Origin: a virus
Lineage: Duplodnaviria; Caudoviricetes
Direction: 5' to 3' (one strand)
IMG/VR virus record: IMGVR_UViG_3300010383_000016
Location: 1 to 40,428 of that record
DNA: 40,428 nt
Shown: in pieces, positions 3,915 to 40,419 of the stretch
Layout: each line of letters begins with the position of its first letter
Numbering within the stretch: the stretch's first letter is position 1
The notes under the pieces: model-generated
What the model was told of the DNA's origin: nothing
Seen by the model: only the letters and a program-made list of their open reading frames with translations
Database searches by the model: none
Program-made: the position numbers and the translations under genes

Positions 3915-3938
3915 CGTCCATTCACTTCCTTGTCAGTT

Positions 3939-4859: not shown

Positions 4860-4889
4860 AGGGTAAAGCTCCTTTCAGATTGTGGTATA

Positions 4890-4911
4890 TAAAAAGGCTC
4901 CCGAAGGAGCC
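4890..4911 (-). terminator. Terminator-like hairpin between portal block and scaffold
   Basis: Minus strand GGCTCC-TTCG-GGAGCC-TTTTT. Confidence 0.6.
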
Positions 4912-4926
4912 GGACCACCGGAGTGG

Positions 4927-5187
4927 TTATCGAACAGGAATATCCTCGCCCGCGATATTGATTGAGTCACCGGCTTCTTTTACCCGATGGTTTTGATCGT
5001 CGGGAAGAATGCATTCCTTATGACCTTTCTTCAACACCATGCCTTGAGAAACATGATACAAGACATAGTCTTGAACCAGTTGTCCGCAGCCGTCGCAGGT
5101 ATGCTTCTTGATGTTGCATTCCTTGCAGTAGCCCCGTATCCACTCTTCCGAATCGATATCGGGCTTATCACATTCAGGGCAGTTCAT
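4927..5187 (-). CDS. Small Cys-rich (zinc-finger-like) hypothetical protein
   Basis: Three CxxC motifs plus HxxC; overlaps upstream gene. Confidence 0.6.
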   Translation of the reverse strand: MNCPECDKPDIDSEEWIRGYCKECNIKKHTCDGCGQLVQDYVLYHVSQGMVLKKGHKECILPDDQNHRVKEAGDSINIAGEDIPVR

Positions 5188-5413
5188 CTTCCCTCATCCC
5201 TTCCTCGATCGTTTGATCAATATAAATAAGCACCGCCTCGAGCGCTTTGGCTTCGTGACGATGCTTCATTACGTCCTCGAGCTCGCAGGACATCAGCCGG
5301 TTACGGCTGTCATCGATTCGTTCTCGAAGGTATTGCTCCAAAAGACGCCAGCCCTCGGTACCTTGCATGTGCCGCAGGGCTTCGGCCGCCTGGCGATTAT
5401 CCACCTCGGCCAC
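5174..5413 (-). CDS. Small portal-downstream hypothetical protein
   Basis: 79 aa, 'TEGWRLLEQYL' as in small genes that follow podophage portals; RBS GGAGG. Confidence 0.65.
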   Translation of the reverse strand: MAEVDNRQAAEALRHMQGTEGWRLLEQYLRERIDDSRNRLMSCELEDVMKHRHEAKALEAVLIYIDQTIEEGMREDELP

Positions 5414-9719: not shown

Positions 9720-10052
9720 TTACAATCCGGGTATCAAATCCTTTATTTCCTTTGCAGCCCTCCAAATTTTGGCTGCGTTTGAGTTCTCGGATAAAAATTG
9801 GATCCCTTTTAAAGTGATCCTTGGATCATCCTCTATGTATTCGCCATAAGCAGGACTGCCCAGGGATCTTGCTGAGATGTAGCCATCAATCAGACCTTCT
9901 TCAAGCATCATTGTTATGATTCGAGTCCAACGTGCTTCGCTAATACCTAGCACACTCCATGAAATAGGGGTTGTATCCACCACCTCAACGTCCATAGACT
10001 CATCAAGATGATCCAAAATCTTTTGAATAACCGTCATTGTTTTAACCGCCAT
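9720..10052 (-). CDS. YjcQ-family protein (moron)
   Basis: 'LGISE..W..II.M..EEGLIDG' and 'PRITLKGIQFLSENS..K..K.IK' signature. Confidence 0.75.
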   Translation of the reverse strand: MAVKTMTVIQKILDHLDESMDVEVVDTTPISWSVLGISEARWTRIITMMLEEGLIDGYISARSLGSPAYGEYIEDDPRITLKGIQFLSENSNAAKIWRAAKEIKDLIPGL

Positions 10053-11725: not shown

Positions 11726-12271
11726 TTATTCCAAAAGGAACAAGCTGCTCATCTTCGCATATTCAATTTTCTCCTTGGCCCGTTCCAGGTAGGTCTGCAC
11801 CGTGCTCCTTCCGAGGTGAAGTTCCTGGGCGATATCGTATTCGCTCATCCCATCGACGTGGTACATCATGAAGCACTGGCGCTCGCGATCCGTGAGGTCC
11901 CGCATAGCATCCTCGATGCGGAAGCGCTCGTCGGCCGTCAGATCACGTCTCTCACGCTGCACGGACCAGCCGTTTGGTGAATGGTATGCCTCGAGCCATG
12001 CAGGGTCCCATGAGCTCACCTTGTACGCTCTCTCTACGCCTCTGCGCGTTCCCGGGCGCCGACCTGTCTTCAACCACTCGAGTGCGAAGTCGCAGTCCGA
12101 GAGCATGCTCCCCAACAGCTCACGCTGCGCCTTATCCTTCGTTCCGTCGAGCGCCTTCTGCAGGCGGTACCGCGTCCGGCCGTAGTTGGCTACAGTGGCC
12201 CCGCCGAGCCTCATTATCGTCCAGTTCCCCGCCTGCTTGATCTTAAAGTCTTCCAGTGGTCCGATTGCCAT
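11726..12271 (-). CDS. Xpf-like late transcription activator (sigma-70 region 4 HTH)
   Basis: 'SMLSDCDFALEWLKTGRRPG.RRG' and 'LTDRERQCF..GMSEYDIAQELHLGRSTVQTYLERAKEK'; last early gene. Confidence 0.82.
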   Translation of the reverse strand: MAIGPLEDFKIKQAGNWTIMRLGGATVANYGRTRYRLQKALDGTKDKAQRELLGSMLSDCDFALEWLKTGRRPGTRRGVERAYKVSSWDPAWLEAYHSPNGWSVQRERRDLTADERFRIEDAMRDLTDRERQCFMMYHVDGMSEYDIAQELHLGRSTVQTYLERAKEKIEYAKMSSLFLLE

Positions 12272-12331
12272 TCCCCTATTCCTCCCGATGGGAGAAGCCC
12301 CCTGACGCATCAGAGGGCTATTCCCTATTGT

Positions 12332-18849: not shown

Positions 18850-19473
18850 TTAGCCCGCTGTACGAGGCTCGTATCGGTTCTCAGTCGGCACCAGCACCGC
18901 GTACTCTGGAGCCCACTTCGGCGGGTCATACTTCCGGAGGTACCCGAGACGATTCACGTAAGCGTCGATCGGCTCCTCACGGTGGAAGGCCTCCAACAGC
19001 TCCCTTGTGGCCGTCACATCGTTCAGCGCCCGATGTGCTCCGTCGAGATTAATGCCGTAGCGGTCGCACATGTTCTCGAGCTTGTGCGGGTAGTAATGGC
19101 GGTCCCGGCTGATCGTCAGAGTATCGATGAATGGATTTGTGAACGTTCGCCCGAATCGGGAGAAACCGTGATGCAGAAAGCCGAGATCAAAAGCGGCGTT
19201 ATGCGCTACGATGATGTTCCCGTTCATCATTCGATTCAAGATTGCGAAGGAGATCTGCTCGTCCATGCCGGCGCGCATCATTTCGGTCGTGATGCCGGTT
19301 ATTTCGGTGATCTTTGCAGGCAGCTCCGTGATGTCTGGATGGTTCACGATGGTGCTGAATTCGCCTACCACGTGACCGTTTCGGACGCGGATCGCAGCCA
19401 TTTCAATGACCCGGTCGCGCTCGGCGCTCAGGCCGGTTGTTTCAAAGTCGAAGACGGTATAATCGAATAACAT
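18850..19473 (-). CDS. DEDDh 3'-5' exonuclease (DnaQ/PolC-exo-like)
   Basis: 'FDFETTGL', 'VAHNAAFD', 'HRALND'. Confidence 0.9.
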   Translation of the reverse strand: MLFDYTVFDFETTGLSAERDRVIEMAAIRVRNGHVVGEFSTIVNHPDITELPAKITEITGITTEMMRAGMDEQISFAILNRMMNGNIIVAHNAAFDLGFLHHGFSRFGRTFTNPFIDTLTISRDRHYYPHKLENMCDRYGINLDGAHRALNDVTATRELLEAFHREEPIDAYVNRLGYLRKYDPPKWAPEYAVLVPTENRYEPRTAG

Positions 19474-19486
19474 GAGGCCACACTCC

Positions 19487-19562
19487 TTGTCAGGATGAAA
19501 CCGCCATGATAGAATGGCGGCAAGATGATTCCGGATGACCCGCTGGCAGGCGGGTTATTTTT
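19487..19562 (+). ncRNA. Candidate ~40-nt antisense RNA unit (sigma-A promoter plus terminator)
   Basis: TTGTCA-17-TAGAAT with extended TG, then ACCCGC-TGGCAG-GCGGGT-TATTTTT. Confidence 0.5.
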
Positions 19563-19896
19563 GTTCCTTCGCTTTTGCGATCACTTTTCTCAGCGACTCA
19601 AGTTCGTCGCCGTCCATGTTCGCTTCGAAGATGTTGTCCAACGGCTCAGTGTCACCGTTCTGATGCCAGTTCACTACTTCAAGCCCTTCGCCACAGAATG
19701 ACATGACGTTCGAGATGAAACGTTCTGCCTTCTCACAAGCTTCCAACAGTTCTGGAGCTGCCGCTATAAGCGAACGATTGTTGGGGTTTGGAACGTCAGC
19801 AACCCATACGTGAGCAAACTCAGCAGCTCCGTACCCTGTACCACGTCTCCAAATTTCCTTCCCTTCAACGTTCCATGGACCCGGTGTATGTTCCAT
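19555..19896 (-). CDS. Phage hypothetical protein
   Basis: 'HTPGPW..LIAAAPELLEAC..IAKAK' is a common phage early-gene pattern. Confidence 0.75.
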   Translation of the reverse strand: MEHTPGPWNVEGKEIWRRGTGYGAAEFAHVWVADVPNPNNRSLIAAAPELLEACEKAERFISNVMSFCGEGLEVVNWHQNGDTEPLDNIFEANMDGDELESLRKVIAKAKEQK

Positions 19897-20013
19897 GCTA
19901 ACCCTCCTTTCTCAAGATCTAGCACGATTTCTCGCACCGTGGAGTTCAGGAATTCACCTCTCGAGCTACGGGAGGGGGTGTTCCTGTTTCCTGAACTCTA
20001 CGGTAGGAGAAAG

Positions 20014-20241
20014 CTACTTCTTCTCCCACTTGACTGCCTCTTCGGCAAGCCGCCGCCGCCTCAATTCTCGATCCACCAGGCAGAGCACGTACGGGTATTT
20101 CGCCTTCTGGGGAATGAACCCCGGGTGACACCGCTCAAGTATCTTCCTGACCTCTGCCTGGAAGATCGCGGCGTCGCCCCGGAGCGCCCATAGCTTTTCG
20201 GAAAGGAGTACCTTCCACGGAACCTCATTCGGGTCGATCAT
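20014..20241 (-). CDS. Hypothetical protein
   Basis: ATGA-coupled to recT. Confidence 0.6.
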   Translation of the reverse strand: MIDPNEVPWKVLLSEKLWALRGDAAIFQAEVRKILERCHPGFIPQKAKYPYVLCLVDRELRRRRLAEEAVKWEKK

Positions 20242-21116
20242 TTCTCAAACTCGAGCTCTTCCTGCTCCTCTATGCGCGTCTCTTCTTGTGCCGCCGGCTC
20301 CTCCTGAGAGGAACCGGTGATGTCGATGATCGGCTCGTCGGTGACTTCGGTAACGTCCTTCCGAACGACCTCGTCCTGCGTGACAGCTGCCGCCTGCTCA
20401 ATGCTGATCGGCAGCCACTTCCAACCGGATCGCACGACTGTCTTCTTGCACATTTCGGTGTAATCCGTCACCCACGGACCATTGTTGGAAGCTCTCGAGC
20501 GCTTGCGGTGCTCCTCGATCTCTTGCACCGGCATGTAGTGGATGAAGTGGCCGCCGTCCTTGAATTTTGCGACCATGTATGCCCCAACGATCGGACCGGA
20601 TTTATCGAATTTCTGATCTTTGCGGAGAAACCACGGCACGTGCTTCAAATTCTCTTCGAGGCCATATACGAGCTCAGTAAAGTCGTTCTCATAAACTTCA
20701 TGGGCAGCGATCGATTGAATGTTCCCGGAGCGTCGTGCGAGGTCGATCATGCCCTTATAGCCGATGATGAACTGGACCTCGTAAGTGTTCGTCTTGTTGT
20801 TTTTGAACGGAAGGAAGTAGCAGTGACCAATCAAGCCGGGCTCGAGGCCGAGCTGCGCTGACTGCATGACGGCCGCCATAAGCGACGGAACCGAACATTG
20901 CAGCAGCGTTGGATTGGTACGGATGGTGGTGAGTGCGATCCGCGTCATCCGCTCGGCCGTCATGTGCTTCGGCAGCGCGCGGGAGATCTCGCCCTCCATT
21001 TTCTTGAGGTATGCGGCAATCGTGTTTGCCGGGGACACAGCCGGCGCTTGTGCACCGGATGCTCCTTGAAGTTTTTCAGCGAGAGCGCTGTTTCCACTGC
21101 TCTTTTGGTTTGTCAT
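20238..21116 (-). CDS. recT: RecT single-strand annealing protein
   Basis: 'ALPKHM.AER..RIALT', 'AQLGLEP', 'QFIIGYKGMIDLARRSG', 'PWVTDY.EM.KKTV'. Confidence 0.95.
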   Translation of the reverse strand: MTNQKSSGNSALAEKLQGASGAQAPAVSPANTIAAYLKKMEGEISRALPKHMTAERMTRIALTTIRTNPTLLQCSVPSLMAAVMQSAQLGLEPGLIGHCYFLPFKNNKTNTYEVQFIIGYKGMIDLARRSGNIQSIAAHEVYENDFTELVYGLEENLKHVPWFLRKDQKFDKSGPIVGAYMVAKFKDGGHFIHYMPVQEIEEHRKRSRASNNGPWVTDYTEMCKKTVVRSGWKWLPISIEQAAAVTQDEVVRKDVTEVTDEPIIDITGSSQEEPAAQEETRIEEQEELEFEK

Positions 21117-21130
21117 CTCGTCTTCTCCTC

Positions 21131-22075
21131 CTATTTCACCAAGAACCGTCGAACCGACTTCGTAACAGCGAACCGCTCATACACATCCGGCATTTCGGCC
21201 TTGAGCTTCTTTGTTTCCAGCGACGTCGTGTCACTCGACTTCCACGTGAATGCCTTCTCTCCGCGGAAGTAGGCGATCTCGTTCTCGCCCATTAGGGACT
21301 TGATCAGGTTCTTGCAAGCATCCAGGCGTCCCTCAGCAGCCTTGACCTCTTCCTGCGCCTCGTACAGGTCGTTGATGACCGTCTCCATATCGTCAGGAAT
21401 CAGAATGCTGCTCTCCGGCTTCGAAGTCGGATAAAGGTGGTTCAGCAGGTCCGTCGACGCCGCGCTACCGTCGACCATTGGGGCGATGCCTTTCATGACA
21501 TGCTCCGTCCAGAAGTTCCGCTCGATATCAATCAGGTGTTTAATGACCGTCTCGTCACGCTCGACGTACCTGTACTTGAAGGTGTTACCGCCGATCAGGA
21601 CGGCGAAGAATCCGTAATCAAGGCCTAGCACCGACAGATAGTGCTGCAGCTGAATCGCGTAGTGGTCGGGGATGCGCTCGCCCTCCCAGTCTTCTTTGGC
21701 GAATGCGTTCGCAGTCTTGACCTCGAGGATTCCCTTCCGCTTGTTCTCGTCCGTGATCAGGCGGTCGACGTTACCAAGCATGAACGGGTGATCCGGGTGC
21801 CGGTAAAGCTTGTTACTTCGCTGGACCTTGAGGCTTGTCCGACTTGCGAACTCACGGGCGACGAGATCCTCGAGCTGGTTGCCCCAATAGGCTGCCTCGC
21901 CGGCTTCATCCTGCTCGATCTGGCCTGTCTTCTCGAGGAACACGGCCACCTTTGACTTCCAAGGGTTGAGGCCAGCCACTGCTGCGGCATCCGAGCCCCC
22001 GATCCCTTTATTGCGGAGCTTCAACCATTGCTCGCGTGTTAAACCTTTCGTTACTGCTTCTACTGTCATTGCCAT
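21131..22075 (-). CDS. yqaJ: YqaJ-like exonuclease (lambda Exo family)
   Basis: 'WLKLR.KGIGGSD', 'WGNQLE', 'GNVDR', 'LEVKT', 'Y.IQLQHY'. Confidence 0.93.
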   Translation of the reverse strand: MAMTVEAVTKGLTREQWLKLRNKGIGGSDAAAVAGLNPWKSKVAVFLEKTGQIEQDEAGEAAYWGNQLEDLVAREFASRTSLKVQRSNKLYRHPDHPFMLGNVDRLITDENKRKGILEVKTANAFAKEDWEGERIPDHYAIQLQHYLSVLGLDYGFFAVLIGGNTFKYRYVERDETVIKHLIDIERNFWTEHVMKGIAPMVDGSAASTDLLNHLYPTSKPESSILIPDDMETVINDLYEAQEEVKAAEGRLDACKNLIKSLMGENEIAYFRGEKAFTWKSSDTTSLETKKLKAEMPDVYERFAVTKSVRRFLVK

Positions 22076-22605
22076 GATTGATATTCCCCCTCATTTGCCG
22101 CTGCCACCTCTAGCAGTGGAATCGAAAAAGTACTTACTATCGAGTCAGTGATGGCCCTTGCCATCTTGATTACGAGAAATAATCTTGTATTCTGAAGTAC
22201 GAAGTACTCCATAAATCCGCCAACATTGACGATCCCCTTAATGTGATAATCACCGACCGCCGGCAGTTCTTTGTTCACCCCAGCCCCGGGTTTAAGTGGA
22301 CCAGCTGCCACTTGAAAACGCCCAACCGAAGTTTGTTGACCAAGACAAGCGTCAATCGCAATAACCTTCTTTGTCCCGTCAATCACTTTTAGCCTTTCGG
22401 TCAAGTTCACAGCATTAACTGGTTCATCCAAGGTTCCGATAACGTTCGTATACCCAAGTTTTTGAAGGTAAGTGCCAACCAAGGGCCCCAACGAATCTCC
22501 GGTTGATCGGTCCGTTCCGATGCAGACGAACACCACGTCTGAAAGTGGAATCTGCGATACTAGTGATGCTAGTACACTCCGAAGTCCATCCGAATCAGTT
22601 AACAT
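22066..22605 (-). CDS. yyaC: Spore protease YyaC (GPR-related)
   Basis: 'VCIGTDRSTGDSLGPLVG', 'GTLDEPV.A.NL', 'IAIDACLG', 'PLKPGAGVNKELPAVGD..I.GIVNVGGFMEYFVLQNTRL'. Confidence 0.92.
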   Translation of the reverse strand: MLTDSDGLRSVLASLVSQIPLSDVVFVCIGTDRSTGDSLGPLVGTYLQKLGYTNVIGTLDEPVNAVNLTERLKVIDGTKKVIAIDACLGQQTSVGRFQVAAGPLKPGAGVNKELPAVGDYHIKGIVNVGGFMEYFVLQNTRLFLVIKMARAITDSIVSTFSIPLLEVAAANEGEYQSWQ

Positions 22606-22857
22606 CTATGCCTCCTTCCTCGCCACGCCCATCTGTGATAAAATAAGCGCAACGAGGTTCTTTAGTCGGTTCCTCAACAACGATGGTCGCCCTGCCCGGC
22701 GGCCATTTTCCTTTTCTGCTGGCAACTCCCGCGTCAGCCGGTTAACCTCCATCCGGAGCGCCGCGCGCTGCGACGTATCCGCTACAAGCCCACTGTCCAG
22801 AATGACCTGCAGCCGTTCGCGGTGTACCCGCGCTTCCCGTACCTGCTTGTCCGTCAT
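22606..22857 (-). CDS. Hypothetical protein
   Basis: ATGA-coupled; stop abuts yyaC start. Confidence 0.6.
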   Translation of the reverse strand: MTDKQVREARVHRERLQVILDSGLVADTSQRAALRMEVNRLTRELPAEKENGRRAGRPSLLRNRLKNLVALILSQMGVARKEA

Positions 22858-23069
22858 GGAATCAGCTCGACCTCCTCATTCGGATCCATGTTCATATCCT
22901 TCGCCATGTCCCGCGCGCAAGGCCGGCAGTAGACTCCTTTCAAACCGCGGAGTCGGTAGTGCGCCGGATCACTGCAAACGTCACAGGTCTCTGTCGCATC
23001 GTCCCCCATCGGAACGTAGCTTCTCTCCCACGGCATTGGCCGGGAAAATCGGTCAAGTGCTGGTTGCAT
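22854..23069 (-). CDS. Small zinc-finger-like hypothetical protein
   Basis: CDVC ... CRPC. Confidence 0.6.
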   Translation of the reverse strand: MQPALDRFSRPMPWERSYVPMGDDATETCDVCSDPAHYRLRGLKGVYCRPCARDMAKDMNMDPNEEVELIP

Positions 23070-23403
23070 TCTTTTTGCTCCTTCCCGGCTTGATCTTCAT
23101 CAGGCTGACCGCCTCGAAGATCGATTTTGCTTGCTTCCATGCTGTCTCCAGCTGCTGGTACTTCTTCGTTACATCCGCGTGGCCCGCCATGTGCATTGCA
23201 ATCAGATCTTCCGACTTTGTCGCCCTCGCCCACTGTCTTACCAGCGTGTAGCTCGGCGTCAGCTTGCCGTTCTCGACCTTCGACACGATCGCCTGGTCTA
23301 TGTAGAGCCTGACAGCCAAATCTTGCTGCGAAAGCTTTGCTCGTTCACGGCACGTTCGGAGCAATTCCGCAATTTCCGCATCCCTCACCTTGTTCATCAC
23401 CAC
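23053..23403 (-). CDS. XRE-family HTH regulator
   Basis: 'RERAKLSQQDLA..IDQAIVSKVENGK'. Confidence 0.85.
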   Translation of the reverse strand: MVMNKVRDAEIAELLRTCRERAKLSQQDLAVRLYIDQAIVSKVENGKLTPSYTLVRQWARATKSEDLIAMHMAGHADVTKKYQQLETAWKQAKSIFEAVSLMKIKPGRSKKNATST

Positions 23404-23510
23404 CTTTCAAGGCGCGGCGCAGGTTTCATAATAAACCTGATGCTTTATGAAATCCGGCTGCGTTATGCTTGAAGCACCGTGGTGATCCACATCCCCGAAA
23501 TTCCTTCCCC

Positions 23511-23735
23511 TTACCCCGCCGGCTTCATTCCCCTTCGGCGGGCCTTCCCCGACAATATCGCTTCCGCCTCTGCTCGAACCTTGCTGAGCTGATCCTGCCC
23601 GATCAGTTCCGGCTGCTTGCAGTGATGCGGGAGCGTCTCCTTAATCGCCGCTTCAATCGTGATGTTCTTGCATCTTACCCGGGCGACGATCATACACACG
23701 CATGCTGCGCGAGACGACGTCCACCGGAATTTCAA
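23511..23735 (-). CDS. Hypothetical protein
   Basis: 74 aa, 4-nt overlap with upstream gene. Confidence 0.5.
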   Translation of the reverse strand: MKFRWTSSRAACVCMIVARVRCKNITIEAAIKETLPHHCKQPELIGQDQLSKVRAEAEAILSGKARRRGMKPAG

Positions 23736-23965
23736 AATAGGCTCACCCCGAGCAACTCAGCGTAGTGCATCCCCAGCATCATCTGCAGCCCCGGTTTAAA
23801 AGCGTATCGATCAAGCTCCTTGTTGACTGCGGCCTTTCCTTTCTCCGTCAAATTCCATTCGTAACCGTCATAGTGGATGAATCCATCACGCTGCAGTTGC
23901 TCGCGCACGATCCGCTCCGATTCTTCAGGGCTCAGATAGCTTTGCTCCTTTGCCAAAATCTCCAC
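23732..23965 (-). CDS. Hypothetical protein (winged-helix-like)
   Basis: 'LQRDGFI..WNLTEKGK'; RBS GAGGAGG. Confidence 0.65.
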   Translation of the reverse strand: MEILAKEQSYLSPEESERIVREQLQRDGFIHYDGYEWNLTEKGKAAVNKELDRYAFKPGLQMMLGMHYAELLGVSLF

Positions 23966-23976
23966 CTCCTCTCTCG

Positions 23977-24333
23977 TTAACTGCTCCTGCGCCGCAGGTC
24001 CTTCGGTTCAAGCTGCGTAGCCACTTCATTCGGACGCCTTGACTTAAGCCATTCGTATAGCTCCGCTTTAAGGACCATCACCACTTCGCCCTTCTTCCGA
24101 CCCTTATTCAAAATCGGGAAGGATGGATCGCGGGTCCATTCCGAGACGATCGGCTTGCTGACCCCAAGCAGCTTTTCGATATGAGCCGGCCGGAGCACTT
24201 CTGGATAATCGCCGCTCAGTCGGAGCTCTGCGAGCTGCCTTTCAAGCACTTCATTCCGCTCGGCCAATTCAGCCGCCAGTCGAAGCGATTCGGCATATGT
24301 TCGAGGAATACGCTGTTCTTTCACGCTGTTCAC
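23977..24333 (-). CDS. Excisionase-like HTH protein with antirepressor-like N-terminal helix
   Basis: 'YPEVLRPAHIEKLLGVSK..FP..VLKAELYEWL' MerR-like Xis pattern. Confidence 0.65.
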   Translation of the reverse strand: MNSVKEQRIPRTYAESLRLAAELAERNEVLERQLAELRLSGDYPEVLRPAHIEKLLGVSKPIVSEWTRDPSFPILNKGRKKGEVVMVLKAELYEWLKSRRPNEVATQLEPKDLRRRSS

Positions 24334-24572
24334 CTCCCCTCGAGGGCTTGTCCAGCTGCCTGCTCGATCTTCTCCAGCGCGGCAATGCCGGCGGCCAACT
24401 GTTCTTCTACTAAGTGCGCTTCTTCCGTGAAGTACTGAACCATTCGCATGATTTTTTGGTCGATACCAGTTGACTGCTCTATGTCTTGGATAGCTCGACG
24501 ATGGAGCACCATGGCCTCCCGCAATTTCATCAACCCCTTACGCCGTGATCGAACTAGTTGGCGTAACGTCAA
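24330..24572 (-). CDS. Hypothetical protein (start uncertain)
   Basis: Helical ORF coupled to the xis-like gene. Confidence 0.5.
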   Translation of the reverse strand: MTLRQLVRSRRKGLMKLREAMVLHRRAIQDIEQSTGIDQKIMRMVQYFTEEAHLVEEQLAAGIAALEKIEQAAGQALEGR

Positions 24573-24783
24573 CTTTTTGGGTAAAGAAATCCTCTACCTT
24601 GACGCCTAGGGCATCTGCAAAGTTCGGAAGCAGTTCTGCTTTGATTTTCCGGTCGTTGCTTTCATACTTTGAAAGAGTGGAAGGGTCTATTCCGACCTTC
24701 TCAGAAACAAACTTTGCAGTGAGTCCCTTAGCTCTTCTGATGTCTCTTATTACAGTCCCTAAATTGTGCGCCATCTTCTCCAC
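24538..24783 (-). CDS. Cro-like XRE HTH regulator
   Basis: 'IRRAKGLT..VGIDPSTLSKYES'; divergent from repressor. Confidence 0.85.
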   Translation of the reverse strand: MEKMAHNLGTVIRDIRRAKGLTAKFVSEKVGIDPSTLSKYESNDRKIKAELLPNFADALGVKVEDFFTQKVDVTPTSSITA

Positions 24784-24791
24784 CTCCCATG

Positions 24792-24903
24792 TTTCCGTTT
24801 CGCCAACTTATGATTTGATTATATATTGGCGTATTGCCAACGTCAATAGTTTTGTTGGCTAATTGTCAACTTTTATTTCCACTTCGTCAATATTAGGTAT
24901 ACT
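24792..24903. promoter_or_regulatory. Genetic switch: divergent promoters and 15-bp operators
   Basis: Leftward TTGACG(24846-24841)-17-TATAAT(24823-24818); rightward -10 TATACT 24898-24903; operators TTGGCGTATTGCCAA 24826, TTGGCTAATTGTCAA 24855, weaker copies at 24792 and 24876. Confidence 0.8.
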
Positions 24904-24918
24904 GTCTTTGAGGTGTTG

Positions 24919-25344
24919 ATGATGGAAGATGTTCGCATAGCGATTGGTGAAAGGCTGCGTGAAGCCCGCGAAAAAAGCGGACTAAAACAGAATATGGTCG
25001 CTAAGCATCTTGGCATTCACAACAGCACTCTGGCTAAATATGAGTCTGGCACACGTGAGGCTGATAACGAGACTCTGATCAAGCTTGCTGAACTTTATCA
25101 GGTAAACGTAGAGTGGCTATTAAAGGGAGTTGGACCTCGTCTTCGTGCTAGCGACTATATCGATGTTGCCAACAAAATGAAAGAAACCGATGGAATCAAA
25201 GAGCAGACGGCGACTAACTACACGACCAACAGATCCTACTCTGGTGGTGGTCTCGATTGGACTGAGGAAGAAATCGCAATGGCCGATGAGATCATTAAGG
25301 CGATCCGTGCAAGGGGTTCAAAACTTAACAAGCCGAAGGAATAG
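24919..25344 (+). CDS. CI/ImmR-like repressor
   Basis: XRE HTH 'GERLREAREKSGLKQ..STLAKYESGTRE'; no S24 peptidase domain; ImmA-type gene downstream. Confidence 0.88.
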   Translation: MMEDVRIAIGERLREAREKSGLKQNMVAKHLGIHNSTLAKYESGTREADNETLIKLAELYQVNVEWLLKGVGPRLRASDYIDVANKMKETDGIKEQTATNYTTNRSYSGGGLDWTEEEIAMADEIIKAIRARGSKLNKPKE

Positions 25345-25385
25345 CAACTCCCTCAGCCGATGAGGAAAGTCTGAGGACGCGTTCA

Positions 25386-25637
25386 ATGTTTAAAAAAGAT
25401 GACATTCTTTCTTCTCAAGCCGAATTCGACCTCGTCACAGAGCTTCAGCTCCCGATCATTGTTTGGCAGCACGGCCAGATCCTTGACTACGGCGGCCCGA
25501 TTATCAAGCACACCGAAGGCGCCGTGTACCTGGGCAATCGGTATTACCTGAAATCCCAGTGCGTGTTCAAGGTCCGCGAGGTTCCCAGTACCGAAAAACC
25601 GACCGCTAAAATTTATCAATTCCCCGCCCGATCCTAA
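25386..25637 (+). CDS. Hypothetical protein in immunity block
   Basis: 83 aa, RBS GAGGA. Confidence 0.65.
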   Translation: MFKKDDILSSQAEFDLVTELQLPIIVWQHGQILDYGGPIIKHTEGAVYLGNRYYLKSQCVFKVREVPSTEKPTAKIYQFPARS

Positions 25638-25661
25638 GGGCGTTTATTTTCAATTAAAAAC

Positions 25662-25709
25662 CGAACATATATTCTTATTCTATCCACAAGTTTACCAACA
25701 CTATCCACA
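25662..25709 (+). promoter_or_regulatory. SOS-box-like and DnaA-box-like sites upstream of immA
   Basis: CGAACATATATTCT 25662-25675; CTATCCACA at 25680 and 25701. Confidence 0.5.
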
Positions 25710-25720
25710 GGGGGAACAAC

Positions 25721-26314
25721 ATGAATCTTGAATTGTACAAGCCCAGTGAAATCGAGCAATGGATCGAAAAGCAATACCGAGATGCCGGCATCTTCTACGC
25801 CTCAGATTTAGAAGTGGACAGGATTGCCGAGCATTTTTATACAGAGGTTCATTATGTCGCGCATCCTAAATCGTTCATTGACTACCCTGATGACTTTTAT
25901 CCGATTATCGCCATCAGTGCATACGGGGGTCCTCAGAAGCGCCGCGAAGATTTCTTCCACGAATTAGGCCATTTGATACAACACTCCGGCGACCAACGGA
26001 GGCTTCCAAAATTGCTAAGCGATCTCTTCGAGAGAGAGGCTAATCAGTTTCTTATGTTCTCGGCGATGCCCGTATATATGCTAGAGGAGTTCAAGTGGGT
26101 ACGGCCGAGCGTCTATCTCAAGGTCCTTACCGAAGAATTCGGAGTGTCAGAGCAGCTGGTAAAACGCCGGATTGAACAAATCAGAAGCAGAATACTCGAT
26201 GAGGAACTGCGGCTTGATCAGATCCGTCGCCAGAAGGAAACCAACAGTGCGCGGTTTACTCTGGATGATGCCCGAAAGCTGCAGGAGCGGATGCGTGCGG
26301 AGAGAGGTGCATAG
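25721..26314 (+). CDS. ImmA/IrrE-family metallopeptidase (anti-repressor)
   Basis: 'FFHELGH..H', 'EREANQF..AMP', 'FGVSE'. Confidence 0.9.
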   Translation: MNLELYKPSEIEQWIEKQYRDAGIFYASDLEVDRIAEHFYTEVHYVAHPKSFIDYPDDFYPIIAISAYGGPQKRREDFFHELGHLIQHSGDQRRLPKLLSDLFEREANQFLMFSAMPVYMLEEFKWVRPSVYLKVLTEEFGVSEQLVKRRIEQIRSRILDEELRLDQIRRQKETNSARFTLDDARKLQERMRAERGA

Positions 26315-26739
26315 TGGATATGGCAAAGATTAGAGTTTGTTATGAAGACGACATTTTTGGTAGTCTTATACCGACTCGAATGATCATATCGTTCTCCCCA
26401 GGACGTTTCGACTGGACGGCCGAACGCTTCCCTATCCCCTTCAATGCGCCTTTTGAGCGCATCACGCTGGACGAGCTCGACGCCGACACTGCCACGGTCG
26501 GTGTGACGATCGCAGAGCTCACCCGCGACTTCGACTACCCCGAGCGCTTCTACCTGTCCATTCCTGCCCTTATCGCTTACATTGAGAATCTGAAAGCCAA
26601 GGAACCAGTTCCCTACTTTGACGATGGGAACCGATTGCAGTACGAAGATATTTTGCATTTTCAAATCTGGATGGGCGATATTGAGATGCTCTTGCAGATG
26701 GATATAAGCAGAATTTACGAATGGGGGACCTATCGATGA
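26314..26739 (+). CDS. Hypothetical protein coupled to immA and int
   Basis: 141 aa acidic ORF overlapping both neighbours. Confidence 0.65.
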   Translation: MDMAKIRVCYEDDIFGSLIPTRMIISFSPGRFDWTAERFPIPFNAPFERITLDELDADTATVGVTIAELTRDFDYPERFYLSIPALIAYIENLKAKEPVPYFDDGNRLQYEDILHFQIWMGDIEMLLQMDISRIYEWGTYR

Positions 26740-27875
26740 AAGGGTCAGTCAAGCAAGGGGAAAAATCTTGGTATTATGTAATCGATCTACCTAAGGATCC
26801 CGTTACGGGAAAACGCAGGCAGAGGCTAAAACGTGGGTTCCGTACCGAAGGAGAGGCGGAAGCCGCATGTGCGGAAGAGATCACAAGGATCAACAAGGGC
26901 CTCTTTGTAGAAGAAACAAAGATGACCCTTGCGGATTACTTTAAGCTTTATCTAGAGGTGCACGCGGAACCGAACTTTAAGCCGACTTCATATGACACCG
27001 AGAAAACCATAATCGAGGGAAGAATCAATCCTGATATCGGCCACCATGTGTTTCAAAAAATCACACCGCTCATCATCAAGCAATATTATGCCAAGCTGAG
27101 CAAAACCTACTCTTCGGATTACGTCAGGAATATTCATGGGGTTATGCGGCGGGCATTCCGTGTTGCTTACGCTGAACTCGAGCTGATTCCGGCGAACATC
27201 ATGGAAAAAGTGAAGACACCTAAGATTCAGAAGAAGGAAATGCAGTTTTGGGATGAGTCCGAATGGACGAAATTTTTACAGGTTTCATTTGACCACGTCC
27301 ACTACATTTTCTTCGCGCTGGCAATACGCGCCGGCATGCGCCGCGGCGAAGTGCTCGGGCTTCGTTGGAAGGATATCGACTTCAATAAGAAGGTGCTGAC
27401 GGTTCAGCAGACTGTGAACTGGACTCGGAATGGCTTGATCTTTCAGCCGGTACCGAAGACGGAGGGATCGAACCGAAAGGTGGAGCTGGACAGCCTTCTC
27501 TTGAACGAACTGAAGGAACGGCGAAAACAGGTGCTTGAAAATAAGCTGCGACTCGGGAAGGATTTCATGGATCACGATTTGGTTTGTTGCTACGAGAACG
27601 GCGAACCAGTTAAGCCAAAGAGAATAACCGAAGGTATGGAGGTGCTGACTCGCAAAGCCGGTATCAAGAAGATCCGTGTTCACGATCTGCGCCATACTCA
27701 CGCCTCCTTCCTCCTCTATCTCAACATCAACCCAAAGGTAGCTGCCGAACGAATGGGAATGAGTGTCCAGATGTTCAACAGCCGCTATTCTCACCTGCTC
27801 CCCACAATGCAAAAAGAAGCCGTCAATCTGATCGAAGAGCGACTCGCTTCACTTCAAAAAACTGTGGATAAATAG
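26736..27875 (+). CDS. int: Tyrosine integrase
   Basis: Arm-binding 'WYYVID..DPVTGKRRQ..RGFRT'; catalytic 'GMRRGE', 'HDLRHTHAS', 'RYSH'. Confidence 0.95.
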   Translation: MKGSVKQGEKSWYYVIDLPKDPVTGKRRQRLKRGFRTEGEAEAACAEEITRINKGLFVEETKMTLADYFKLYLEVHAEPNFKPTSYDTEKTIIEGRINPDIGHHVFQKITPLIIKQYYAKLSKTYSSDYVRNIHGVMRRAFRVAYAELELIPANIMEKVKTPKIQKKEMQFWDESEWTKFLQVSFDHVHYIFFALAIRAGMRRGEVLGLRWKDIDFNKKVLTVQQTVNWTRNGLIFQPVPKTEGSNRKVELDSLLLNELKERRKQVLENKLRLGKDFMDHDLVCCYENGEPVKPKRITEGMEVLTRKAGIKKIRVHDLRHTHASFLLYLNINPKVAAERMGMSVQMFNSRYSHLLPTMQKEAVNLIEERLASLQKTVDK

Positions 27876-27996: not shown

Positions 27997-28070
27997 TGGG
28001 CCCTACAGGACTCGAACCTGTGACCAATCGGTTATGAGCCGACCGCTCTAACCAACTGAGCTAAAGAATC
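27997..28070 (-). tRNA. tRNA-Ile2(CAT)-like copy with broken acceptor stem (att core)
   Basis: GATTCTT TA GCTC AGTTGGTTA GAGC G GTCGG CTCATAA CCGAT TGGTC ACAGG TTCGAGT CCTGT AGGGCCC A; pairs 2-71 and 3-70 mismatched; no CCA. Confidence 0.85.
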
Positions 28071-28171
28071 CTTCAAACATAGGTAAAACTAGTTCTATAA
28101 GTGGGAACTTTCCTCGGTCTTCCTGCGAATGATGAAACATGGTTCAGAATGTTTTGTGATCACCAACGTGA

Positions 28172-31284: not shown

Positions 31285-34200
31285 TCACTCCTTCCCCAGC
31301 CCTTTGCGGGCGATCTCGTTCATTCGATCGTCAAGCTCGTCGAGCTTCTTGCGCTTGTCGCCCGACTGCAGGTTCTTATCCTTCTGGACGGCTTTATACT
31401 GCTTGTTGAGGTCCGTGATGATGTTGTATGCCGCCTTCATTCGGCCGTAATCCGGATCCTTGAACGGCTGCTGGTTCTTCTCCGCCGAGTTTTTCGCCTT
31501 CGTGAGCTTATCCCACTTATCGTAGAAATCTTGGCGAATCTGCCCTCCTCCGTTCGTCGTCGCGAGGAACCCGGACACTGGTGGATGCTCGTAGAAAGCG
31601 CGTGAAGGCTGCGGCGCCTCGCTGTTTCCAAGCATCGCCTGAAGCAGCGTATCCAGTCCCTCAACGCCGTACTGGCCGAGCGTAGCCGTGAATCCTTTGA
31701 TCGTATTGTCGATGATACGCGGGCTCGCGAAGTTCGTGTCCGAAACGCCCGGAACGTGTGAAAGCGCATGGCCGGCCAATTTTGCGGTTTCGCTGGTGTT
31801 AATGCCGTACTGGTCCTTCTTCTCAAGATCCTGCTCGCCGCGGGGAATGATCGGTGCATCCCGGAAAAACGAGTGATTCGTCATCCCTTCGATGATCGGT
31901 GTGAATGCCGTTATGAGCGTCGGCGGCGTATAAGCTTCACCGAGGGCGCGCGCGTAACCGTCAAATGCATCCGGGTCATTGTCCTCCATCCATCGTAGCA
32001 TTCGCTCGGTGCCCGTAGCAAACATCATACCGGCCTCAAATGGCTTCGGAATTCGGGCGAATTGGTTCGTTCCGGCCACCGGGACAATGAAGAAGGTGTC
32101 CTTCTGCCACTGCGGTATGTTGTCGTATACCTTCTTCTGCTCGGGTCCGAGGTTTCGAGACCAGATGTAGAGACCAATCGACGGAAGTACCAGCGTTGTC
32201 ACTGCGCGCGTAAGGAAGGACGCTTTGGTTTTGTAATCCTTCGGACCTTCTCCCCAAAACGATCGAGCCGTCCGATCAATGCCTTGAATGCCGGCATTGA
32301 GGAACGCGATCATTCGGTTGGCCGGGCGGATCCCGGCGCCGGCGCGGTTGAAGTCCATCAAATCCCGGGCGGCGAACGCAGCCTCCTCGGAGCTCCCTGT
32401 CTTCTTAAGCACTTTCCGGTACGTTCCGACTTTCGTGGAAAGCTCCGATACCTCCGCTGCCTTCCTGAGCGCGCCGACCGTCCCCTTGATCAGCGTGTAT
32501 CCGCTCAGCAGCTTTCCCAACTCCTTCGGGCTCTTGATAACGTTCAGTGTCTTATCCTTGAAGCTCTTCTGAAACACCTGCTGGAGCGCTTCTCGGTTCG
32601 CCTCTCGGTCTAGTGACATCAGCGTGCTCATCGCCCCACCGCTCGACATGAACCGATCGAACAGTTCCGTTTTGCCCAGCACGTTAGCCAATCCAAAGAA
32701 AAAGTCTGCCGGGTTGAAGCCATACTTCGTGCTGTTCACCATGGCACCAACTGCATCACGGAATGCGTTCCGAAGCAAGAACGCCGGCGACAGCGTAGCT
32801 CCGGCGCGCAGCAGACCAGCCGCCCCGCCAAGGAAGCGAACAACTGAATTTGCCGACTCGTTATCGAGCGAGAGAAGTGCATTGTATAGCTCAGGATCGC
32901 GCACCTTGTACTGCTGCCGAACGCCGTTAATCCAAACCGATACGATGTGGTCAGCTCGCTCTGCTCCGCCCTTCCCAATGTGCTCCACCCATGCGCCGGC
33001 GTCGTTGATCTTCGCAAGCTCGGCGAGCTGCAGGCCCACCTTGTTCTTCGCGGCCGCGTTCATAACGAGAAATGCGTTCTTGACCATGCTCTCGATCGGG
33101 TTAATGATCGTTCTGGTCGAGCCCTCGTCGCTCATTCGCTTGACCGGATCCGTGACGTTTGCGAATCCCTTGGACGCCCCATAGCCCCCATTCTTGAAGC
33201 CCGCAATCGCGTCGTCATCGAAGTACCGCATGAACGGTACGTAGTTCGGATGCGTCTTTCGCATCGCCTGCACTTGCTTCGCCGACTTGAGCTGAGCGTC
33301 AACCATAAGCTGCAGCAGGGCGTCGTTCCACCCGATTACCTTCTGCTGGATCGCCTGCAGCTCAGGCGTATCCATTCGCGCAAGAACGGCCTTGATCTGC
33401 GAATCGCTGAACGGGACCTTCTTACCGGCCGCTTTCAAGTCGGCTGCGTGCTTAACAGCGAGGTACGTCGCAAACTGTTTCTCGCTTACCCCCATATCCT
33501 TCAGTGGGCTCAGAATCTGCCGCAGCCCATCGCTCAACTTGTTCCCCTTGTCATCGTAGATGCCGCGGGTAATCGCTAGCTTAGCCCGCTCGCCGATGCC
33601 GCGGCTGAGCCGGGCCATCTTATAGATCGAATCAGCGCCTACCCCTAGCTTCCCCTTTAGTGCCTTCTCCGCGAGTTTCAAAGGATTCAGATCGTCAACC
33701 ATCCGCGTATAGAAGCGATTCCAGCTAAAGTTCTGCTTGTCGCCGCCACTGTCGAAGTCTATAAGACCGACGGCCTGATTGAAATCACCCTGGGTGATCC
33801 ACGTGTCGATGTCCCGTGCAGATGCCTCTAGCCCCCGCAGTGTCTTTTCATCGAGCTTGCTTTCGAAGAACTTGGTGAAATTCGGGGCGATCCGTCGGGC
33901 CGCGTCCGGGTCAGTCAAACGCAAACGGACGTATTCGGCGACGCCTTCCGCCGGCAACTCATGGGGCTTGTATGCGGCAACGTTCAGGATTGGATTGTTG
34001 TGGATCAGCGCCATGTACTCGTTCTGAAATCGCTGATCTTGCAAATTAAAACGCTTGTCGAGGTTATGTCCGACCTCATGCGAGATCACCTGCAGGTCTT
34101 CGGCCATGCGCGTCCGAACGACCCCCGACCGGACCTTGTGAATGCCCAATACACCACGTCCGGCCTTAAGCTTGCCGGCATCGATGACGACCTTGAGGTT

Positions 34201-36018
34201 TTTACGCAGGTTCTTCACGACACGGTTCCGGTTGATCGTCCTCTCGTTCTGTGTCCGCGCCTGCCGAAAGGGAATCGGATTACCGGCATATTCCTGACCG
34301 GCATCCATGTGCTGAACGCCCTCACCACTCGTTCCTGCTGCCTTTCGTTGCTTGAAGGTTTGAGCTGAACCGAGCTCGCCCTCGACAGGAATTACTTCGG
34401 CTGGAGCATTCTTCCCGCTTTTGTATTCGGAAGCCGTGACCAGTCGCCCCTGTGCTTGCTGACGGTTTTTGTTTTTACTTCTATTGGGGACCGGTGATTC
34501 CTTTTTCGGCGGAATGATTTCTACTTCCGGAGCTGTCCGATTGTTGAATAGGACTTCCCGCGGAGCAGCTGCCTCACCCTTTACTCCGCTGTCGTATCGA
34601 TCAGCCATGGACTTGACTGGACCGGGTGCTCCAGCTGCCTCCCGCGACCGCTGCAACTCCCTTGCCCGGCTTAAACTGTCCGACCTCACTTTAGGAGGCG
34701 GATAAGCCAGTTTGACCAGTTCGTCGAGACCTGGGTCTTCCGGTCCAGCCATGCGCGACCACAGGCTCTCGAGGCTTTCGAGCTCACGACCCGGCGGGTG
34801 GTCCATTTGATTAGCGACATTGATCAGGTTCTCGAACTTCACCCGCCATGGATTCGGCTCGCTTCGGGCGGTTGTCGGAGGTGCCACGTTCGGTTCAGGA
34901 AGGCCCAGGACCTGTACATTGCCTGGCTGCTGGATCGGCTCCGCGCCGTACGGGAGCGGTTCGGATGTCTTACGCTTCAGCACCTCAGCCCGCGACGGAG
35001 GGAGGGCAAGTGGTTGATCGCTGTACCTTCCAGCGCGCTGATCGATGAAGTCGAAACGGCCGGCTAAGTCCTGACCAATATTAACCGGTCGGCCCGAGAC
35101 GTCTGGGGCGGTTCTCCCGGACTCCGCCGCCTGCGTAAACACGTCAGGATTTGTCTCGATCGAGTGTCCGCTTCGATTCATCAGTGAGCGTACCGCCCGT
35201 CCGACTGCCGGAGTCAGCGCGCCGAGTGCGCCGCCAAGGATCACTCCGCCAGTAGTATCTGCAGCGAGATTCTTCGCATAATCCTTCGGCTCACCCCCAA
35301 CGAGCAGCGTATGAAAGGGCGAATATGCGGCCGATCCTAGCGCGCCCTGTGTCGCGTTCTCCACTCCCTTGTTCACCATCTTACCGAACATGGAGTCGAC
35401 GATCTGCGTGCCGTCCTTTGAAAGTGTAAGGCCCGCGTCCGGAAGGAGTTGCTGCGCCTTGTTACCGGCTGCAGTGGCTACTCGCTGAATGGCCGGATGC
35501 TCAAAGAAGTTGGCTCCGATGCTAAGGTTCCCCACTGGCATCGTGGGATTAGTGACGAACCCGGCCGCGCCGCCAGCAATCTCAAGAGCCTTGTCTGCAA
35601 TCCGGTTCCCGGTCGACTTCGGGCTACTCATCATGTCATCCGGAATGCCCATTGCCTTCCCGGCAGCAAAATCGAACATCCTAAGCGGAGCCGAGTTGGC
35701 GAGATGACCTAACAGATTCAACGGATTGAACAAGCCGCCCGGATAGTCCGTTCGCTCATCGGACCGGGTCAGCGAAGGTGATCCCTGGACGGGCTGCTGT
35801 TCCATTATCTGACCAGGAGCATTATCGAACTGATGAGCCATTTGAAAGGCTTCATCTGCTTCCGTCCGTCCAATTGCCTCATAGTCGATCGGCTTTTTCT
35901 TGCTTGCGATATAGTCCTTGGCGGAGACGAGCCCACCTCCTCCACTTCCGCCACCACTCGCCGGTTTGCTGCCGCCGTTCTTTGTGCTCAAATAATCTTT
36001 CGCACTGATGAGGGGCAA
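31285..36018 (-). CDS. Large polyvalent internal virion/ejection protein, LPD38-like C-terminus and HExxH motif
   Basis: 'ARDLMDFNRAG..FLNAGIQG', 'YDNIPQWQKD.F', 'RIPKPFE'; 'HEVGH' at 34066-34080; TTG start after AGGAGG. Confidence 0.78.
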   Translation of the reverse strand: MPLISAKDYLSTKNGGSKPASGGGSGGGGLVSAKDYIASKKKPIDYEAIGRTEADEAFQMAHQFDNAPGQIMEQQPVQGSPSLTRSDERTDYPGGLFNPLNLLGHLANSAPLRMFDFAAGKAMGIPDDMMSSPKSTGNRIADKALEIAGGAAGFVTNPTMPVGNLSIGANFFEHPAIQRVATAAGNKAQQLLPDAGLTLSKDGTQIVDSMFGKMVNKGVENATQGALGSAAYSPFHTLLVGGEPKDYAKNLAADTTGGVILGGALGALTPAVGRAVRSLMNRSGHSIETNPDVFTQAAESGRTAPDVSGRPVNIGQDLAGRFDFIDQRAGRYSDQPLALPPSRAEVLKRKTSEPLPYGAEPIQQPGNVQVLGLPEPNVAPPTTARSEPNPWRVKFENLINVANQMDHPPGRELESLESLWSRMAGPEDPGLDELVKLAYPPPKVRSDSLSRARELQRSREAAGAPGPVKSMADRYDSGVKGEAAAPREVLFNNRTAPEVEIIPPKKESPVPNRSKNKNRQQAQGRLVTASEYKSGKNAPAEVIPVEGELGSAQTFKQRKAAGTSGEGVQHMDAGQEYAGNPIPFRQARTQNERTINRNRVVKNLRKNLKVVIDAGKLKAGRGVLGIHKVRSGVVRTRMAEDLQVISHEVGHNLDKRFNLQDQRFQNEYMALIHNNPILNVAAYKPHELPAEGVAEYVRLRLTDPDAARRIAPNFTKFFESKLDEKTLRGLEASARDIDTWITQGDFNQAVGLIDFDSGGDKQNFSWNRFYTRMVDDLNPLKLAEKALKGKLGVGADSIYKMARLSRGIGERAKLAITRGIYDDKGNKLSDGLRQILSPLKDMGVSEKQFATYLAVKHAADLKAAGKKVPFSDSQIKAVLARMDTPELQAIQQKVIGWNDALLQLMVDAQLKSAKQVQAMRKTHPNYVPFMRYFDDDAIAGFKNGGYGASKGFANVTDPVKRMSDEGSTRTIINPIESMVKNAFLVMNAAAKNKVGLQLAELAKINDAGAWVEHIGKGGAERADHIVSVWINGVRQQYKVRDPELYNALLSLDNESANSVVRFLGGAAGLLRAGATLSPAFLLRNAFRDAVGAMVNSTKYGFNPADFFFGLANVLGKTELFDRFMSSGGAMSTLMSLDREANREALQQVFQKSFKDKTLNVIKSPKELGKLLSGYTLIKGTVGALRKAAEVSELSTKVGTYRKVLKKTGSSEEAAFAARDLMDFNRAGAGIRPANRMIAFLNAGIQGIDRTARSFWGEGPKDYKTKASFLTRAVTTLVLPSIGLYIWSRNLGPEQKKVYDNIPQWQKDTFFIVPVAGTNQFARIPKPFEAGMMFATGTERMLRWMEDNDPDAFDGYARALGEAYTPPTLITAFTPIIEGMTNHSFFRDAPIIPRGEQDLEKKDQYGINTSETAKLAGHALSHVPGVSDTNFASPRIIDNTIKGFTATLGQYGVEGLDTLLQAMLGNSEAPQPSRAFYEHPPVSGFLATTNGGGQIRQDFYDKWDKLTKAKNSAEKNQQPFKDPDYGRMKAAYNIITDLNKQYKAVQKDKNLQSGDKRKKLDELDDRMNEIARKGLGKE

Positions 36019-36030
36019 TACAATCACCTC

Positions 36031-39795: not shown

Positions 39796-40419
39796 TTATT
39801 TGGTCCATTCAACCTTTTCTCTGATGATTTTTGCTGGGTTGCCACCTACTAATGAGTTTGAAGGCACATCCTTCGTTACAACCGATCCTGCAGCAATTAC
39901 AGCACCATCACCGATTGTTACGCCCTTTAGAATAGTAACGCGGCTTCCTATCCAAACACGGTTACCTATCCTAACCGGTTTCAAGGGTGCGCCACCGTCA
40001 AGTTGATGAAAATCGGTATCCATTATCTGCACATCCCACGCAATTGCGCAATCTGTTCCGATCTCGATGGAGCAAGCGCATATAACAAGACTGTTGCAAG
40101 ATATGAACGTGTTATCGCCGATGCTGAGTGAAGCACCGCGCCCCATAATCACCCTAACGCCGGGACCTAAGCTCGCATGTCCAGTGACTCTCAATGTGCT
40201 GTTCTCTGGCATTTGCAGTATGGTGGGGTCATGTTGGATCTGCCCTATCTCCCCCATACGTGTAGTGAACACACCCAAGGACAAGGAGGACAAATTCAAC
40301 TTAGCCGTGCTGTGTTTCTTGATTCTGCTCTTCCACGAAGAGCGAATTGACTTTCTATATATCAATGAATACCAAGCTGACTTGAAGATAATCCCCGGAT
40401 TATTTAACAATTTTCCCAT
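39796..40419 (-). CDS. Hexapeptide-repeat (LbH) acetyltransferase; may start across the window join
   Basis: 'IMDTDFH', '[46 protein letters not shown]'. Confidence 0.9.

Follow-up and report, generated by a model that had tools for sequence, protein, structure and literature searches.

The yyaC locus and the early operon

The window, meaning the whole stretch of DNA analysed here, is a virus record of 40,428 bases with a CheckV completeness of 100 %. It carries a yyaC gene (Table 1) that reads as an ORF of 179 aa from an ATG start, with no internal stops. The TAG stop codon of an 83 aa ORF upstream (22608–22606) lies immediately before this ATG, and the final 10 nt of yyaC are shared with the start of yqaJ (22075). 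An earlier note on this DNA had described a gene abutting the upstream stop and overlapping the yqaJ start, lying in the early operon and more AT-rich than its neighbours. The junctions and the gene order bear this out, as does composition: GC content is 0.47 in yyaC compared with 0.54–0.60 across the five flanking genes, and GC3s is 0.43 (76 out of 175 codons) compared with 0.70 in the five neighbours (578 out of 831; Fisher P=2e-10). This GC3s is the sixth lowest among the 56 genes of the phage, with cI and cro similarly low. Being well under that of the neighbours, it suggests that yyaC came from a lower-GC phage.

Table 1. Position and basis of the features discussed, in window coordinates
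Feature	Position	Strand	Basis and remarks
yyaC, 179 aa GPR-related protease	22066..22605	-	PF06866, TIGR02841 and phrog_8268 matches; predicted GPR/HybD fold
Shine–Dalgarno GGAGG of yyaC	22611..22615	-	Sequence; 5 nt 5′ of the ATG
GTDRSTGD motif, residues 30–37	22495..22518	-	Profile alignment, D37 on GPR 1c8b D128; the stretch alone scores below noise
AIDA motif, residues 83–86	22348..22359	-	Profile alignment, D85 on GPR 1c8b D194
EVAAANE tail, residues 166–172	22090..22110	-	Tail alignment; resembles the start of a SASP cleavage site
yqaJ (RecE-like exonuclease), start overlapped by yyaC	21131..22075	-	Domain/family profile matches
recT	20238..21116	-	Domain/family profile matches
83 aa ORF, stop abuts yyaC start	22606..22857	-	Sequence comparison; 3′ end encodes a two-hairpin element common to related prophages
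Antisense extended −10-like site (22634–22644), then terminator-like hairpin (stem 22682–22707)	22634..22717	+	Terminator prediction, −10 by eye; possible short antisense RNA
Sigma-A-like promoter TTGACG-17-TATAAT (11/12), ahead of cro	24818..24846	-	Promoter scan; likely drives the early operon including yyaC
Lysogeny switch: cro 24538–24783 (-), cI 24913–25344 (+), IrrE/M78 metalloprotease 25721–26314 (+), integrase 26721–27875 (+)	24538..27875		Profile matches
tRNA-Met adjoining integrase, likely attachment site	27997..28071	-	tRNA search

Between the cro promoter and recT only one terminator-like site was found on the coding strand, a weak one at 23753. With the cro promoter upstream and only this weak site intervening, it is likely that yyaC is on the early lytic transcript. 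A protein atlas search gave no family for the 83 aa ORF, and a search for sequencing runs matching window positions 20000–26000 listed none. The possibility that yyaC had taken over the leader of yqaJ was rejected, as the element upstream of yyaC resembles the copy within the 83 aa ORF of relatives and not the yqaJ-proximal copy.

A second antisense promoter-like site with a terminator-like hairpin is present at 19487–19560 (+), and such elements recur, one or two per phage, in the early operons of loci L147, L148, L151–L154, L002, and L005. They fold at z of about −2 to −2.6. An Rfam search of window positions 19000–25000 returned one chance-level match and none for the antisense elements, which may be short antisense RNAs damping leaky early transcription.

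The phage and its probable host

The window is a temperate phage by its gene content, which includes an SU10-type portal and capsid, terminase, LPD38 protein, integrase, cI/cro, IrrE/M78 protease, and a replication module. Several of the 401 Paenibacillales genomes searched have tRNA genes that match about 70 nt of its tRNA-Met exactly, and the nearest named relatives of the window proteins are mostly from Paenibacillus. Together these indicate that the host is likely to be a spore-former of the Paenibacillales, with the reservation that tRNAs are conserved. The full-length tRNA-Met beside the integrase, in the middle of the record, is consistent with an excised, circularly permuted genome that integrates at tRNA-Met.

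The SU10-type portal, capsid, and adaptor together with a 1580 aa LPD38 protein (31285–36027, 2763–7295) are here seen in a temperate phage of Gram-positive hosts. Searching IMG/VR with the portal for sister phages returned one distant relative only (37 %). A YjcQ-family gene, a sigma-70 region 4 protein, and a hexapeptide-repeat transferase are also encoded (9720–10052, 11726–12310, 39796–40419).

Family, predicted fold, and putative active-site residues of YyaC

Assignment to the YyaC family is supported by matches to TIGR02841 spore_YyaC (185.9 bits; cut-off 84.9), Pfam DUF1256 PF06866 (179.9 bits; cut-off 27), and phrog_8268 ‘spore protease’ (E 2.8e-34). Both acidic motifs of the family, GTDRSTGDxLGP and IDACLG, are present, in agreement with the earlier reading of the gene as an intact yyaC, and in the set of 36 phage copies described below each motif is whole in 35.

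The AlphaFold model (pLDDT 87.6) was compared with 48,161 chains. The best fold match was HycI (Z 13.8, rmsd 2.5, 131 residues), and GPR (peptidase A25) was matched by 7c4x (Z 13.7, rmsd 2.9 over 157 residues) and 1c8b (Z 13.1). HycI and GPR families likewise ranked top in Foldseek, none at E 0.001; a BFVD fold search with the model gave zero matches at E 0.001, and a PDB sequence search with the single protein returned FtsZ/PhuZ-like noise only. Phage YyaC shares with GPR the predicted fold and the two aspartate motifs, but GPR is a protein of 330–370 aa solved as a zymogen, to which the 179 aa phage protein is 18 % identical.

Sequence matching to GPR is faint. The profile match to 1c8b, which places D37 and D85 on D128 and D194, is weak (E 0.81 overall), global profile alignment to five GPRs gave a probability of 0.2, and with the A25 (GPR) HMM there was no match, PF06866 being the only one that did match. 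The equivalence of the aspartates is based on the local profile alignment, motif comparison, and the fold search. In Paenibacillales GPRs the two acidic motifs are laid out as in YyaC. We take the catalytic aspartates of GPR to be D127 and D193 in B. megaterium numbering, one off from those of 1c8b. Residue 64 is Asn in the phage protein, as in four of 38 viral rows aligned, and His in all 27 parB-linked host copies aligned. Phage YyaC is very probably an active, early-expressed protease.

Distribution and synteny of phage-borne yyaC

Phage-borne yyaC is already annotated in print: as gp219 of phage G, which is absent from the reported virion proteomics (PMC12484599), in P. larvae prophages (PMC9341999), in Paenibacillus phage Lilo (LILO_47), in phiCD211/phiCDIF1296T, and as PHROG 8268. 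Among phiCD211-like prophages, 19 out of 30 are reported to have it (PMC10778935; also PMC5786514, PMC6127314). In GenBank, 14 of 50,697 phage records have a yyaC match, and two overlapping scans of IMG/VR (20 and 41) gave 44 loci. The set counted here is 36 distinct phage copies, being the window, 31 IMG/VR loci, Lilo, and three prophages; three partial loci, three loci at 28 % identity, six duplicates or near-copies, and one host-like flank (L124) were left out.

In 12 of the 35 other phage loci a recombination gene lies within 5 kb downstream of yyaC, and in nine of these a switch gene is upstream as well, the marker queries having been derived in part from the very loci counted. In the remaining 23 there is no recombination gene within 5 kb downstream; these include large phages with yyaC amid DNA-metabolism and unknown genes. 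Downstream partners vary and include SbcC/SbcD-like, Sak, Sak4, RecT, AAA ATPase, and AbrB-like proteins. Lilo, for example, likewise has yyaC in the early slot, with the switch upstream and an AAA ATPase/nuclease module downstream.

The direct overlap with yqaJ was found only in the window phage. A yqaJ gene is near yyaC in just one of the 35 other loci (L010; 375 nt away, with one ORF between), none of the 19 loci found with the window phage's YqaJ has yyaC, and neither yqaJ nor recT was found in 80 metagenome yyaC loci, many of them short or host-type. In the best metagenome match (L234), yyaC is ahead of apparent Gam/ERF-type genes, as judged by eye. The earlier claim that yyaC is wired to YqaJ/RecT was therefore overstated: an early slot ahead of some recombination module recurs, but the link to YqaJ does not. 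The genes share timing and not a specific partnership. Accessory genes in general tend to collect in the early region, and position is therefore a poor guide to function.

Eight of the 35 other phage loci contain an AbrB-like gene, and in six it is within 1 kb downstream of yyaC or fused to it; in L002 and L008 a sigma-factor gene is close behind yyaC.

Lineage and selection

The best 80 matches in GTDB genomes are all host genes linked to parB, which is beside yyaC in none of the viral loci compared. Phage YyaC has the same family membership, acidic motifs, and FMEYFVLQNTRL segment as these chromosomal proteins, to which it is 52–67 % identical. It differs from them in lying behind a sigma-A-like early promoter, in its E-V-A tail, in the His64 to Asn change, in belonging to a separate clade, and in an N-terminus about 20 residues shorter (median 30 versus 51 residues before the first motif). 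A second chromosomal YyaC, here called paralog 2, occurs in the Paenibacillales: in one family, matches were found in 135 of 136 genomes, and in most of these there are two. Paralog 2 is beside a family-2 glycosyltransferase gene and near thyA/DHFR and tauE (loci L131, L134, L136–L139, and L141–L146 of genomes G001, G005, G006, G009, G013, G015, G016, G018, G020, G021, G023, and G024).

In an LG+G4 tree of 86 rows, which took in 27 of the 80 host rows and 11 clostridial-type proteins but not 10 long or duplicate rows, window YyaC falls in a clade of 33 rows with support of 97/98, made up of 21 phage copies, 10 of paralog 2, and two chromosomal copies beside hbs. A quick mixture-model tree of 65 rows recovered the clade with support of 95, and grouping of window YyaC with 27 parB-linked rows was rejected by the AU test (P=0.0012). 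The phylogeny proposed in the earlier note sets the window copy apart from parB-linked host yyaC, and by sequence it belongs to a distinct, mostly phage-borne lineage. Fourteen viral rows, including Lilo, fall elsewhere in the tree, so phages acquired yyaC more than once.

The spacing from D37 to D85 is 48 in the window and 47–48 in 26 of 38 viral rows, compared with 53 in 25 of 27 host rows. The short spacing is not confined to the clade, being present also in some other phage copies and in four of the 80 metagenome loci, all four inside phage-like gene runs. The FMEYFVLQNTRL segment is mostly kept in the 36 phage copies (Q138 in 32, N139 in 34, T140 in 36, and R141 in 34) and has its typical form in the parB-linked host copies. 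Paralog 2 shares the clade and the shortened spacing of phage YyaC, but has an altered FMEYFVLQNTRL segment, mostly Asp at residue 64, and no E-V-A tail. Nesting of paralog 2 within the phage copies, as expected of domestication, is not forced by the data (AU P=0.31); on sequence, it is possible that paralog 2 is a domesticated phage copy.

Six of seven phage yyaC pairs have dN/dS of 0.05–0.18 and one is saturated; of the six, three are among near-copies and one is close to saturation. All five pairs that include window yyaC are saturated. With relatives under purifying selection, the lineage is not the one-off insertion without such selection that the earlier note had raised as a possible refutation. 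It could still be that in this phage yyaC is a recently acquired passenger, intact because it has not been there for long, and that only the copies of other phages are under selection. Its codon usage is unadjusted (GC3s 0.43 versus 0.70), all 19 yqaJ-relative loci are without it, and His64 has become Asn. This is nevertheless improbable, given that the gene has its own ribosome-binding site and is tightly coupled on both sides, that the lineage persists in phages of very different size and GC content under dN/dS of 0.05–0.18, and that even the nearest relatives, only about 60 % identical, have all motifs whole.

At two chromosomal loci (L135:5805–6503 and L140:5921–6529), a solitary phage-type yyaC is flanked by hbs and tRNA-Pro/HPr kinase, just 3′ of spoIVA. 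These copies are sister to those of large phages, with dN/dS of 0.19, and look like a captured prophage remnant.

Promoters and boxes associated with sporulation were also sought. Spo0A boxes are not enriched in the window (nine seen versus 6.6 expected; 21 of 100 shuffles were as high), and by the B. subtilis consensus it has no strict sigma-F/G promoter match; two relaxed sigma-F-like matches are present 220 and 520 nt upstream of yyaC (0.37 expected). These two matches would suit lysogenic conversion, in which the host would form spores or germinate better thanks to an additional spore protease supplied by the prophage, as has been proposed for phiCD211 (PMC10778935), and the chromosomal copies in the clade, paralog 2 and those between hbs and tRNA-Pro, mean that hosts can use the lineage. 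It is quite improbable here, since yyaC, in the same orientation as its neighbours and coupled to them, is in the middle of an operon after the cro promoter and lacks a coding-strand terminator of its own, and a strict forespore promoter match is absent.

The C-terminal tail

An E[VI]A sequence 17–40 residues past the QNTRL segment is present in 12 of the 36 phage copies, in none of 80 parB-linked copies, and in none of 13 copies of paralog 2. With a looser pattern the counts are 17 of 36, two of 80, and two of 13, and this pattern occurs at the end of three of 863 other viral ORFs. Synonymous codons vary in the tail, which indicates a protein-level motif; an origin as a by-product of a Shine–Dalgarno sequence was rejected for the same reason. 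One copy that clusters with host copies of Bacillaceae (L111) and two from outside the clade (L004 and L006) also have the tail.

Among 16 SASPs (small acid-soluble spore proteins) from five Paenibacillales genomes, 15 have EVAQE and one has EIAQE at the position that we take to be the GPR site. The likeness of the tail to this site extends to three residues only, the Glu in fifth position being absent. It is speculative that the tail might be cleaved by, or inhibit, the protease itself, and a degradation tag would be equally possible.

The tail bears on a further possibility, re-aiming of the protease, by which it would now cut a phage protein, perhaps an early regulator to be processed or removed, or nothing but itself. 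A conserved phage-specific tail would fit, as would two in-frame fusions just past it, such as a self-cleaving linker would give, and yet neighbours vary between phages, so that no fixed phage substrate is visible, and the host-type FMEYFVLQNTRL segment is retained. We regard re-aiming as very improbable. In the fusions themselves, YyaC is joined just past the E-x-A tail to an AbrB-like protein (L011, 260 aa) and, after the E-x-A tail, to an MT-A70 methyltransferase domain (L112:6001–7230, 409 aa); either may be a sequencing or frameshift artefact.

Proposed function

By sporulating, hosts gain shelter from phages, and phage genomes can become trapped in the process. The favoured interpretation, to which we assign a probability of about 0.5, is that in cells that are sporulating or have just germinated, phage YyaC clears the phage DNA of SASPs; SASP stripping, as put forward in the earlier note, is plausible. 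On induction, transcription from the cro promoter would lead to YyaC being made together with the recombination and replication proteins, through presumed co-transcription and translational coupling. Vegetative cells would offer it no SASP. Where SASP is accumulating in a forespore, or persists in a waking spore, the protein, as a putative GPR-type aspartic endopeptidase, would cut alpha/beta-type SASPs and so keep phage DNA open to transcription and replication as the lytic cycle starts.

The proposed substrate is taken from Clostridium acetobutylicum, the YyaC of which is reported to cleave SASP (PMID 26362088, Wetzel and Fischer 2015, as cited in PMC9332280). SASP produced in vegetative cells is reported to block replication and transcription (PMC8538823), and phage genomes to get into spores (PMC12991052); both are in favour of SASP clearing. 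So are the HMM scores, the GPR/HybD fold, the D37/D85 alignment, the kept FMEYFVLQNTRL segment, the dN/dS of relatives, and the recurrent early position, together with the SASP genes of the five Paenibacillales genomes checked, each of which has 7–11 SASP matches. Against it are Asn in place of His64, the lack of Spo0A-box enrichment and of a strict sigma-F/G promoter, the 23 of 35 other loci in which the 5 kb downstream are free of recombination genes, and the saturated dN/dS in all five pairs with the window copy.

All five genomes checked also encode GPR. As probable hosts have GPR and usually two YyaC paralogs, redundancy and timing need explaining; expression of the phage copy also requires DNA that can already be transcribed. 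A benefit of timing would follow from host yyaC being sigma-F-controlled and GPR being made as a zymogen, when the phage copy is made at induction. Because of the redundancy, and because the gene is inactive until transcribed, action during sporulation, before coating is complete, is favoured at least as much as action at germination.

The principal alternative is that the active protease is aimed at another forespore or sporulation protein, its mistimed production derailing sporulation and thereby keeping the cell usable for phage multiplication. In B. subtilis, yyaC is described as sigma-F-controlled and dispensable, and in B. anthracis a yyaC mutant has collapsed forespores, and its authors expect YyaC, if a protease, to have a role unlike that of GPR (PMC12700454); SASP may therefore not be the substrate of YyaC in Bacilli. 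In C. perfringens, yyaC1 is reported to affect sporulation and spore yield, and yyaC2 germination (PMC9332280). The AbrB-like genes within 1 kb downstream or fused in six of 35 loci and the sigma-factor genes of L002 and L008 would also suit another target. However, no AbrB-like gene adjoins yyaC in the window, SASP is the only YyaC substrate reported in the literature searched, and it is not obvious that more protease would harm sporulation. This alternative has a real but minor chance of being correct.

Phage countermeasures to sporulation are so far reported to be mostly regulators, such as sigma factors, Spo0A, AbrB, and SpoIIID; yyaC is not mentioned in the text or two text supplements of that survey (PMC10294663). 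If SASP clearing is correct, a phage enzyme that strips the spore DNA coat would be a direct, non-regulatory countermeasure. It would also provide an entry point, through its substrate, to the role of YyaC in Bacilli. If yyaC is merely a generic early accessory gene, it is one more member of a family already annotated on phages. The gene is real and intact and its kind is known on phages. The clade, the purifying selection in relatives, and the E-V/I-A tail were not found in print, nor was a functional test, phylogeny, or tail motif of phage yyaC in the literature searched, most subscription papers being outside that search. As cultured phages (Lilo and phage G) carry yyaC, the question is testable.

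A broader proposal, with only a small chance of being right, is that an ancient phage lineage of SASP-clearing proteases, free of sporulation control and gated by a tail that mimics the SASP site, serves as a counter-dormancy weapon and was taken into the Paenibacillus chromosome as a widespread second yyaC.

Divergent YyaC-like proteins

Two further kinds of YyaC-like protein lack the aspartate at position 32. A third chromosomal type (L128:6028–6630 and L130:5991–6599) has GTNRY in place of GTDRS, changing D32 to N, and is on a long branch. The very divergent proteins of L019–L021 (28 % identity), without the D32 motif residue, are from large AT-rich phages, where they are encoded near topoisomerase II.
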